Made by a program: the position numbers and the translations under genes. This document shows, piece after piece, positions 26,324 through 38,234 of a stretch of 64,000 bases of DNA. The notes beneath the pieces were generated by a model, which saw only the letters and a list, made by a program, of their open reading frames with translations, searched no databases and was not told the DNA's origin. Source of the DNA: Octopus sinensis (lineage: Eukaryota); NCBI RefSeq assembly GCF_006345805.1, contig NC_043012.1, positions 8,122,001-8,186,000 on the forward strand, given 5' to 3'. Numbering within the stretch: position 1 is the first letter of the stretch; the number at the start of each line of letters is the position of its first letter.

Positions 26324-27602
26324 CTGCAATGGTAAAACAAATTAAGGTGTGATCAGTTAATGGATCAAAGTATGAATGGCAGAATGGGAATAAACAGTTC
26401 AGCTACATGTTAAAACCAAATCATGTGGGCATTTGGAAGCAATGTAAGTCATAATATCATTATCAACATAGTTTTAATCTCCACTTTCCTGAGGTGGTCA
26501 GACGAGAGTCATTGCCTTTCCTGTCATCAACCATACATGTTTTCAAACAAGATAATATTTCTCAGAGTTTTTCAAATGCAAAAATAGCACAATGGCCAGG
26601 TTTGGTTTCACAGAAAATTGCAGACAATTGACACGTTTTTGTATGAAGGTTGATGTCTGTTTACATTCAACATGAACACACACACACACACATTGGCTTT
26701 TTTAAAAAGTTTTTTCCAGTTTCCATCTACCAAATCCACCAACAAGGCCTTGTCCAAGGTGCCATGCAGAGAAACTAAACTCAAAACCATATGGTTGTGA
26801 AGCGTCACATGTTAGTGCTCAAGAGTAAGCAATCACACTTATGCGTGGTGAACTGTTAAGATGTGTGGCCAAGAGTTAATAGATGTGAATAGTTTGAAAG
26901 GTCTGTGCATGTGTGTTTTCTATTTTTAATCATTTGAGTTCTTCCTATACAGAAGGAGCTGGGTTCTAACAAAGAAACAAAGCCCTGTCACTAGAATTTG
27001 GATAACAATACATGTGCTATGTTGAACTTTGGGCAAGTATTGTATATTTTTATTGTTCGGCTTACAGACTGTTACTAAGAATTTTCACTGATATAACTGA
27101 GTACACCAATAATTATTGGTATGAATTTAAATTTATAATTATGTTGTGTGTGTGTGTGTGCATATATGCAGTATTGTTGTACACACCAGACAGGTTTGTA
27201 AAGCACCTGACCTTTTATAGTTGACAGTAAAGAAAAAGTAAGGGAACACACAGACAGACACTGATAGACTTAATGAGATGTTAATTATTATTGGTTATTG
27301 TTTAATTATGTTGGTTACCTTTAATTGAAAGTTTGCGTAGATCAAGTTACCACAATTCACATATACATCCAGTGACTTAATCTGCATTAAATTACCACAG
27401 CTCAAATATATACCAACAAACTGTACCGACCTCAACCACTGCCCAACCTTGTGTCATATTTACACCCAGCCTTACCTTTCGTGTTCAAATGATATAGATT
27501 TGCCTACAGAAGGAAACAGTTTTCCACCAGCAAACCTTAAAATCAGGACTGGCCCCTATGGCCTACCTACCTCCCTTTATCAAGATTGGAGTATAACAGT
27601 AA

Positions 27603-33813: not shown

Positions 33814-33818
<5 letters not shown>
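33495..33818 (-). mobile_element. SINE family D
   Basis: Reverse complement of 44685-45020. Confidence 0.85.
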
Positions 33819-33851
<33 letters not shown>

Positions 33852-33992
33852 TAGTTGAATGAATTATCCTAGTATGGATAATTCGGTTAACTGATACCCG
33901 GGTAGCAAATTCACGTCAGAAAAACACGGTTGAAGCTACATGCCAAGGGCAGAGATCATGTGCTTTCGTGTGGGAATTTGTGTGTTTTTTTA

Positions 33993-34261
33993 ATACAAAT
34001 AAATGAAAGAATGGAGTTGAACGACGATTTAACAAAATTCCTTTATTCTCGACATATGTTTCGAAGGCTGCATATTCCTAATTTCGAAGGAATAAGGGGT
34101 GCATTATGCCGCCTTCTCATCAGGAAAGACAAGATGAGAAGGCGGCATAATGCACCCCTTATTCCTTCGAAATTAGGAATATGCAGCCTTCGAAACATAT
34201 GTCGAGAATAAAGGAATTTTGTTAAATCGTCGTTCAATTCCATTCTTTCATTTATTTGTAT
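33993..34261. repeat. Near-perfect inverted repeat, 129-bp arms and 11-nt loop; probable inverted Penelope pseudo-LTR pair
   Basis: 33993-34121 is the reverse complement of 34133-34261 with one mismatch. It contains the hammerhead. Confidence 0.93.
34043..34132 (-). ncRNA. Type I minimal hammerhead ribozyme (Penelope-like element type)
   Basis: Minus strand: TTGTCTTTC-CTGATGA-GAAGGC...GCCTTC-GAAAC-ATAT-GTC^GAGAATAA. Intact CUGAUGA/GAAA/GUC core, 6-bp stem II with extension, palindromic stem III (ACATATGT), stem I of about 8 bp with a bulge. Predicted cleavage is between 34051 and 34050. Confidence 0.85.
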
Positions 34262-34980
34262 GTATGTATGTATGTATGTATTATTCTTAAACGAGGATAT
34301 TACTCACATTTACTTTGAAGTTTGGGTCAGTTAAGCAGCTAACTTCGAAGTCACTGTCAACGATAGTCTTGTTTAAGAATAATAAATTTGTATTCAAGAA
34401 AAGTATGGAGTAACCCAGCAGATTAATGTAAAGCTGTTTTTATTATAACTGAACATAAAACAAACATTAACACACACATTAACTCGTGTGTGTGTGTGTG
34501 CCACAGATTTCCAGCAGCAAACTATTTGGAATAGTTTCTTGGGGGGGTCACAGAGTACAGAATGTGGTGGTGGTGGTGGTGGTGGTGGTGGTGAGAATGG
34601 TACTAGCTAACTATGACGGGGGGGGGATATTAATAGTGGTGGTGGTGGTGGTGGTGATGGTAATAGTGCTTCTAGTAGTTCTGATTACATTAGTGGTGGG
34701 GGTAATAGTAGTAAAAACAGAGTAGCAGTAGTAGTAGGAACAGCAGCAGCAGCAACTAGTAGTAGTTGTTTAGCCCTTGGTCAGCCTTGATAAAGGCAGA
34801 CATACAATCAAAAGTATTCCAAACAGGACCATCCACCATTTTACATACGTTGGACTATATGATCCAGTGTAGTTCAACTGCCAGCACCACCACCCCAGCT
34901 TCATTCTGTGGTAAAAAAAATAGTTGATACTAATTCAATTCTCATCCAGCTTCACTAATTAACAGGATTCATAATTAGTA

Positions 34981-36870: not shown

Positions 36871-37262
36871 ACTATGTAAAAAGCCCCCATGTTGGTGTCA
36901 CATAAAAAGCACTCATTACACTCTGTAGAATGGTTGGTAGCAGGAAGGGCATCCAGTTGCAGAAACCATGCCAAAACAGACAATTGGAGCCTGGTGTAGC
37001 TCTCCAGTTTCTGTCAAACCGTCCAACCCATGTCACATGGCAAATGGATGTTACATGATGATGATGATGATGATGCATTTAGGGTAGAGAGATGCAGTGT
37101 GTGTGTGTGAAGGTCGAAAGGAAAAGAATTAAGCACAATCTGCTGGATGTGCTTAATAATGAAGAATGAGGCACAGATGAGCTGAGAGAAAAACTGAGTA
37201 TGAGAGGAATCGGTTGAAATGTGCAGAAGGGAAATAAATGGCTTCCCTTGGTATGTAGATGT

Positions 37263-37495
37263 TGAGGAGGAGGAGGAGGAAGAAGTGGAAGATGAAGAGG
37301 AGGAAGAAGAAGTGGAAGATGAAGAGGAGGAGGAAGAAGAAGTGGAAGATGAAGAGGAGGAAGAAGTGGAAGATGAAGAGGAGGAAGAAGTGGAAGATGA
37401 AGAGGAGGAAGAAGTGGAAGATGAAGAGGAGGCAGAAGTGGAAGATGAAGAGGAGGAAGAAGTGGAAGATGAAGAGGAGGAAGAAGAGGAAGAGG
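37263..37495. repeat. Purine-rich minisatellite, 24-30 bp unit GAGGAAGAAGTGGAAGATGAAGAG
   Basis: Read directly. Confidence 0.92.
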
Positions 37496-38234
37496 TCATT
37501 GAAGTGCCAAGGTATTGATGTGGAAGAAATTGGTGGCAAAGGAAGACTGAAGAATCATCATCATTTAACATCCATTGTCCTTACTAGCATGTGTTGGACG
37601 GTTTGACCAGGGTTGGCAAAGAAGTGGTAAGAGCCGAAAACTCAGGAAACTTAGACTTTATATAAAACAGATGACAAAGGAACACAAGGAGTGGCGGAAT
37701 TTCGTGCCGGAGAAGGCCAGACCAATCCATGCCAGCATGGAAAAATCACTGCCAAAATGATTATGACAATATGGGTGTATAAATACACATAGACATGTTT
37801 TTATACATCATTAGCATCATCATTTTAATGTCCACTTTTCCATGTTCAAATGGGGCAGACAGAATTTGTTGAGGCAGATTTTCTATGGCTGGAAACCCTT
37901 CCTGTTACGGACCCTCACCTGTTTCTAAGTCAGCTAATATTCTGCCATGGCCAGACATGTTTTCATGGAAGATTGGAAATGCAGTACTGTGTGTGTGTAC
38001 AAGTTGGCAATGCTCATTTACAACTACCACACAATATGAAGACAGAGAGACACACACACACATGTATATATGACAGTTTGCAAGTACCAAATCCACTCAC
38101 AAGATACTTGTTCAAAGTGTCACACAGTAGGACTGAACCTGAAACCATGCACTCATAGTTCTCAACCACACAGCCATGCTTGTGCATCTTATAGATGGAT
38201 GGATGGATCGATCGATCGATAGATGTGTGTGCAT

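Follow-up and report, generated by a model that had tools for sequence, protein, structure and literature searches.

An intron of a ZNF608/609-like gene of Octopus sinensis contains a long, almost perfect inverted repeat that carries a hammerhead ribozyme motif on the strand of the pre-mRNA. The question raised by this locus is whether the paired ribozyme serves the gene or is what a mobile element left behind on insertion. The window, that is the whole analysed stretch of 64,000 nucleotides (NC_043012.1, positions 8,122,001 to 8,186,000), is numbered from its first letter. In our judgement it is very probable that a Penelope-like element (PLE) inserted here, short and head-to-head, into a TA repeat of the intron, with a hairpin that is likely a neutral by-product and a hammerhead that is predicted to be silent.

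The insertion and its host intron

The inverted repeat is composed of two 129-nt arms (33993-34121 and 34133-34261), which are 99% complementary, differ by one mismatched base and are separated by an 11-nt loop; the predicted RNA fold of the hairpin (33993-34261) has -224.6 kcal/mol and a z of -36. The boundaries 33993..34261 proposed earlier hold for the palindrome but not for the full insertion, as the sense arm runs on to about 33850, where it stops at (TA)n, and a 155-nt tail lies beyond the boundary noted before. The long arm (33850..34133, minus strand), delimited by blastn against a natural long copy, is a 5'-truncated pseudo-LTR plus tail. It spans family positions -83 to +211, counted from the hammerhead cut site, and is 97.9% identical to copies L004 and L005. 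Its outer end at 33850 is the distal start site of the reverse transcriptase (RT) at +211. The unpaired part of the tail (33850..33992, minus strand) corresponds to the sequence before the ORF ATG in L073, L074 and L079, and represents the leader by which tandem copies separate the pseudo-LTR from the ORF. The short inverted arm (34133..34261, plus strand) spans positions -71 to +56 and is devoid of C3 and U4 of the core and of the 5' strand of stem I. The head-to-head junction with the hairpin loop occupies 34122..34133, one base (34133) being common to both arms. A (TA)n target-type repeat (33818..33849) flanks the long arm and a (TATG)n repeat (34262..34280) the short arm, and no target-site duplication is discernible at the flanks of the insertion. 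In the 164 kb around the window this is the one copy of the family. Adjoining it is a weaker inverted repeat of 47 nt and 77% (34276-34387), which is another repeat, and further on a long low-complexity tandem tract of the TCT/TCC type (37014-37580) gives rise to Ser-rich open frames.

The exons with similarity to ZNF608/609 are all encoded by the minus strand. The next one downstream of the insertion (26323-26165, acceptor at 26324) and the subsequent one (10906-10811), both conserved, were recognised by protein homology. The upstream coding exon (C16:8247603-8247728) was mapped from a 93%-identical cephalopod-type protein and has a GT donor which joins in phase. Because these exons flank it with an in-phase donor, the insertion is placed, on gene structure as read from the DNA, within the intron and in sense. 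On the same grounds the earlier claim that the full core lies on the strand of the ZNF608/609 pre-mRNA appears correct. The intron measures about 99.3 kb as judged from protein homology, not from reads, and the insertion is situated about 7.5 kb before its 3' end.

A Hydra-like family of Penelope-like elements

The arm of the window copy is repetitive, with 1,718 first-look candidates, and a 27-nt word from its core has 1,057 exact matches genome-wide (reversed control: 0). Parent copies with an ORF encode an RT (RVT_1, E 0.0012, with YRDD and DKT) followed, at the C-terminus, by an endonuclease (EN) domain of the GIY-YIG type (E 0.00069); both Pfam matches are weak and under the curated cut-offs, while the motifs are clear. 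The pseudo-LTR with its tail is located before the ORF in L074, L078 and L079 and after it in L066 and L069, and partial tandems carry pseudo-LTRs with a hammerhead at both ends. An inverted 5'-truncated copy with a one-sided tail, which is standard PLE anatomy in the consulted parts of the literature (PMC8557442, PMC3846280), is present at 48/79 sampled loci, and TA-type repeats come after 118 out of the 127 3' ends in the sample, in keeping with a preference for (TA)n. The window insertion is thus a Penelope-like element, and the recognition of a Penelope-like pseudo-LTR from a hammerhead with palindromic stem III, made in the earlier note, is supported by the RT and GIY-YIG parent copies. 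Non-LTR retrozymes are tandem noncoding repeats, each with a hammerhead; the window in contrast has a single, dispersed head-to-head insert with no second copy on the same strand nearby.

The closest described elements are those of the Hydra clade of C-terminal EN+ PLEs (Craig et al. 2021, PMC8557442), which includes Hydra-1_Obim of Octopus bimaculoides. As far as the available part of that description goes, clade and octopus family share an RT followed by a C-terminal GIY-YIG domain, DKT, an RW-motif near the N-terminus, and, flanking the E and N that are conserved in the EN domain, CxxC and CxH. Also in common are the pseudo-LTR hammerhead, (TA)n targets, the inverted 5'-truncated copy and the one-sided tail. 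In distinction to the same description, the RWK position reads RWL or RWF in the family protein, the tail has 155 nt instead of 30-40, the hammerhead has a 41-nt loop II that is unlike the motif listed for Hydra-1_Obim, and the element is longer than 3 kb. A further difference concerns the CxCX5C linker between RT and EN, which is present in 11 out of 12 relatives examined (the twelfth is truncated) and absent in L013, L068, L069, L070, L134 and L148. An Asn-rich stretch replaces this finger in the ORFs of L013, L068, L069 and L070, where TA targeting is retained; (TA)n targeting thus persists without the zinc-finger linker proposed to mediate it. N-rich inserts have been reported in rotifer Penelopes (PMC3846280, consulted in part). 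Since the motifs match those of the Hydra clade except for the replaced linker, the family is filed, by its protein motifs, as Hydra-like and not as a member of the clade. Our literature search found no paper on an octopus PLE hammerhead beyond Hydra-1_Obim; subscription papers, Repbase/Dfam and bioRxiv supplements may describe this family.

Near the long PLE copies we observed unrelated mobile elements (L069:25-3185, L066:653-1372, L070:1952-2389 and L031:3668-4120), with LINE-type endonuclease/RT frames and mariner-like fragments, labelled by eye from translations. In public octopus proteomes, pieces of the PLE protein occur under the names 'myb-like protein I' and 'GATA zinc finger domain-containing protein' (P0121, P0125 and P0187), which are likely misannotations.

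Two fixed ends and the origin of the inverted arms

The family sample takes in all clusters formed by the first 100 matches listed for the core word, from C1 and the initial 66 Mb of C2. Four duplicate partner loci were removed and two were merged, which left 79 loci, with a bias to loci that have an intact cut-site word in one arm. At least 48 out of 79 have head-to-head arms at a distance within 400 bp, a minimum number as long copies extend beyond the fetched stretch. The 5' ends are variable, whereas the 3' ends fall at two fixed distances from the cut site, +56 (52 exact) and +211 (65 exact). Among the 48 head-to-head pairs, 44 combine a short with a long arm, two a short with a clipped long arm and two are long with long, while no pair is short with short. 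The 46 pairs with a short and a long or clipped long arm compare to an expectation of one half (p 8e-12). Arms overlap by at least 30 nt in 32 pairs and do not overlap in 16, and arm-to-arm identity is 94-100% even in subfamilies at 74-85% from the reference. This one-short/one-long rule is genomic evidence on how Penelope elements form their inverted ends.

Two-ended priming, taken by itself, appears to us a fairly likely explanation. The GIY-YIG domain of the element would nick both strands of the TA repeat, and the RT would prime on uncut sense RNA from one DNA end at +211 and from the other at +56. Both cDNAs would stop early; the stops would be variable or would lie at -150 to -157, where transcription likely starts. 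Their 5' ends would be joined via micro-homology. Where the two cDNAs overlap, the transcript of the overlap would form a perfect hairpin. In the window, stops at -83 and -71 would leave one core, clip the distal helix I and bury the core in the duplex. The 16 non-overlapping pairs fit priming on a single RNA; for the 32 pairs with overlap, re-copying would be required, or else two RNAs from one source, and the high arm identity is consistent with this.

The same 16 pairs bear on a very improbable alternative, in which the palindrome is an assembly artefact from a fold-back read, or the product of self-priming on an antisense template as proposed for rotifer PLEs (PMC3846280, in the part available). 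Among the assembled contigs listed none spans the junction, and none contradicts it; apparent assembly duplicates do occur (L011/L023, L122, L140). Pairs without overlap, however, are impossible to obtain by fold-back or hairpin self-priming and therefore argue against both, and the same rule is followed by 44/48 pairs. Given the one-base difference between its arms, its two different family-fixed ends with different flanks, and this family-wide rule, the palindrome is unlikely to be an artefact.

A lizard element offers a comparison. For PAc/Poseidon of Anolis (Frangieh et al. 2024, PMC11167929), the part of the paper at hand describes, as in the octopus family, a tail bounded by two sites at which the RT starts, both of them downstream of the hammerhead, together with AT-rich targets and an uncut RNA as template. 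The octopus sites differ: 155 nt lie between them, both are upstream of the ORF start, and each arm uses one of them. As a counterpoint, the RT start site of PAc showed no difference between strands in vitro (PMC11167929, same part); the one-short/one-long rule requires such a difference.

L1 elements provide another precedent, twin priming, in which two primers on opposite DNA ends generate an inverted 5' segment. The octopus family shares the inverted 5' segment, and its 16/48 non-overlapping pairs are as expected under such a scheme. As differences, its two priming sites would both be at fixed positions within the RNA, and 32/48 pairs overlap. We did not find twin priming applied to PLEs in the literature searched; subscription papers or bioRxiv supplements may hold such a model.

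At the 5' side, a hotspot at -150 to -157 accounts for 27/109 short-range ends. L066 (minus strand) carries, some 190-150 nt before its cut site, TGACGTCA, TATAA and, 20 nt on, CTCATT; these CRE-, TATA- and initiator-like motifs sit just ahead of the hotspot. They are likely the promoter of the element with a transcription start at -150 to -157, in which case the RT would have run off the 5' end of the RNA in making many of the solo copies. The junctions of L144 (-70/-82) and L135 (-71/-75) are nearly equal to that of the window (-71/-83), and a junction at -70 to -77 may be recurrent or a hotspot (8/109 ends). L144 (G000:C1:184398411-184398830), with a junction within one base of the window's, derives from a slightly different source variant.

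On the plus strand the window reads AAGATGA (34131-34137), as the plus arm begins at G5 of the core. The earlier note correctly saw that this second copy is cut inside the core, with AAGATGA for CTGATGA. Such cuts are common across the family. Genome-wide, 12, 14, 4 and 12 arms end at positions 0, +2, -3 and -5, respectively (12/52 matches at the cut site, 14/26 at +2, 4/12 at -3 and 12/30 at -5 start exactly there; three or four of the +2 ends resemble small indels and two of the -3 ends are internal deletions). With about 12 arm ends per nucleotide tested, cuts within the 7-nt core are therefore expected many times. Across these four positions the genomic 5' ends do not accumulate at the hammerhead cut site, which agrees with a template RNA that is uncut. 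A single case, L211 (G000:C8:5499446-5499494), is a palindromic insert with 5 nt between its arms, each of which starts precisely at the cut site. In L291/L292 (G000:C14:12598550-12598769) both arms share one internal deletion, which takes out most of the hammerhead, so that a source RNA lacking the ribozyme could still transpose.

Self-complementary loci make up 32 of the 79, with a full core on both strands in 14, on one strand in 13 and on none in five. The form seen in the window, one full core caged by the other arm, is accordingly found at 13/79 sampled loci, which extrapolates to roughly a hundred or more window-like copies; the locus itself tells little about control of ZNF608/609.

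The hammerhead, its duplex and the host gene

The type I hammerhead of the window copy (34047..34127, minus strand) is recognised by its motif, by an Rfam match and by compensatory changes in relatives. It has the core CUGAUGA (34123-34117), a 6-bp stem II GAAGGC/GCCUUC (34116-34111/34068-34063) with a 41-nt loop, and a 3' part GAAA-C-AUAU-G-UC with a palindromic stem III; the cut site lies between 34051 and 34050. The core elements CUGANGA, GAAA and NUH and the three helices that define a type I hammerhead are all present. Rfam Hammerhead_1, which the earlier note suggested as a check, matches 34045-34129(-) at 19.9 bits (E 0.015 in a narrow search of 191 nt), below its gathering score of 34. 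A whole-window Rfam scan gave no hammerhead match, and all its miRNA matches over the hairpin were under their gathering scores. With the hammerheads of metazoan PLEs and with the non-LTR retrozymes (Cervera and de la Pena 2014, PMC4209133; bioRxiv 10.64898/2026.07.22.740005; both in the parts available) it shares the type I topology and a short palindromic helix III suiting dimers. Unlike them, the octopus family has a long loop II and a bulged, extended helix I.

A complete type I hammerhead, as first described, stands as regards the core and the palindrome of stem III; intact it is not, its distal helix I being clipped. Stem I of the window copy has only 4 contiguous pairs. In untruncated copies it is prolonged past an internal loop by a distal helix of 7 pairs, four of which are taken away by the window junction and three remain. 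The predicted probability of stem I is 0.013 in the monomer and 0.004 in the dimer of the freed window arm, compared to 0.09-0.86 and 0.07-0.20, respectively, in untruncated copies. L005, with a proximal sequence equal to that of the window, reaches 0.11 and 0.20, L013 0.09 and 0.07, and L002 0.86, with a double hammerhead as the minimum free energy fold of its dimer. The window copy is thus predicted, from folding, to be without a stable helix I even when freed from its antisense arm.

For the family the picture is different. In an alignment of 10 copies of different subfamilies, 97.5% of stem I cells and 91.7% of stem II cells are paired, as are 70% of those of the distal helix I (window row counted). 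Stems I and II show eight two-sided (compensatory) changes, a number reached by 2/500 shuffles, which kinship among the sequences may by itself beat. Because of this covarying, conserved fold and the one untruncated copy predicted to form a double-hammerhead dimer, the family ribozyme would probably be functional somewhere.

The duplex was proposed earlier to sequester the ribozyme through the complementary upstream arm, and this is what folding predicts: the hammerhead fold lies about 110 kcal/mol above the hairpin with the antisense arm, also for the nascent transcript. The further idea that the cage lets the host tolerate the ribozyme finds no support, as 32/79 loci are self-complementary anyway and the freed arm is predicted to be without stem I. 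Nor is a need for the cage supported, given an uncaged, sense-strand hammerhead motif in the same intron and reports that PLE hammerheads are inactive as monomers or depend on protein. In the parts of the sources consulted, metazoan PLE hammerheads showed no monomer and low dimer cleavage in vitro (PMC4209133), and cleavage by the lizard hammerhead depended on the protein of the element (PMC11167929).

These points weigh on an explanation which we regard as unlikely. It assumes that insertion is random, that active hammerheads in sense within introns are purged unless caged or clipped, and that the window copy survived as a caged one. It would agree with the full core on the pre-mRNA strand and with the complementary arm being transcribed first. 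Related hammerhead retrozymes are, in the available part of the report, somewhat depleted from introns of Xenopus (bioRxiv 10.64898/2026.07.22.740005). By analogy this suggests that some selection against genic hammerheads exists, a counterpoint to neutrality. The CPEB3 ribozyme, like the window motif self-cleaving, in sense and in an intron of a regulatory gene, can lower its host mRNA (PMC10274809, consulted in part). CPEB3 is, however, active, single-copy and of demonstrated effect, in contrast to the young, clipped and caged repeat copy of the window. Against the explanation stand also the prior of caging, near 40%, the predicted failure of the freed arm to fold, the reported inactivity of solo PLE hammerheads (PMC4209133, same part) and the tolerated uncaged motif of another family in the same intron, the stem II of which appears weakened. 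Adaptive caging of the window hammerhead is thus unsupported. A broader version is possible at low probability, in which the two fixed priming sites mass-produce self-caged hairpins, introns preferentially keep caged copies, and the family constitutes a big source of ADAR substrates and a genomic record of PLE inversions. The hundreds of natural loci of the family could bear on selection against intronic hammerheads.

Release of the hammerhead from its duplex by ADAR editing or by a helicase, so that it cuts the ZNF608/609 pre-mRNA as a switch, was also raised in the earlier note and is very unlikely. A near-perfect duplex of 129 bp is a textbook ADAR substrate, and hyper-editing is very high in the dsRNA-rich octopus and a lizard Penelope is heavily edited (PMC5625713, in the part available). 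Yet if none of the 44 adenosines in the antisense arm is allowed to pair, the predicted ribozyme fold remains about 63 kcal/mol uphill, or 100 with inosine taken as G. Editing would also reach the five adenosines of the core that the duplex encloses, and editing of hammerhead core adenosines kills activity. Moreover the distal helix I is clipped, no dimer partner is nearby, and the copy is young (about 98% to its siblings) and one among many alike. Passive editing of the hairpin by ADAR is plausible, given these findings on octopus and on the lizard Penelope. Assembled contigs from two putative RNA runs contain family words but nothing locus-specific, and allow no assignment of an A-to-G pattern. 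To return to the by-product of an element insertion, which we take the window hairpin likely to be rather than a gene switch, it would act as a passive ADAR substrate and be removed with the intron.

The second hammerhead of the intron lies outside the window (G000:C16:8200789-8200878; L034:4789-4878, minus strand) and was one of two motifs from a descriptor search of the 164 kb around it, compared to none in five block shuffles. It is of type I with a 6-bp stem I, in sense to the host gene, has no inverted arm within about 1 kb, and belongs to another repeat family with 2,424 first-look candidates. Its layout, CUGAAGAU...UGAA, is similar to that of listed Hydra hammerheads.
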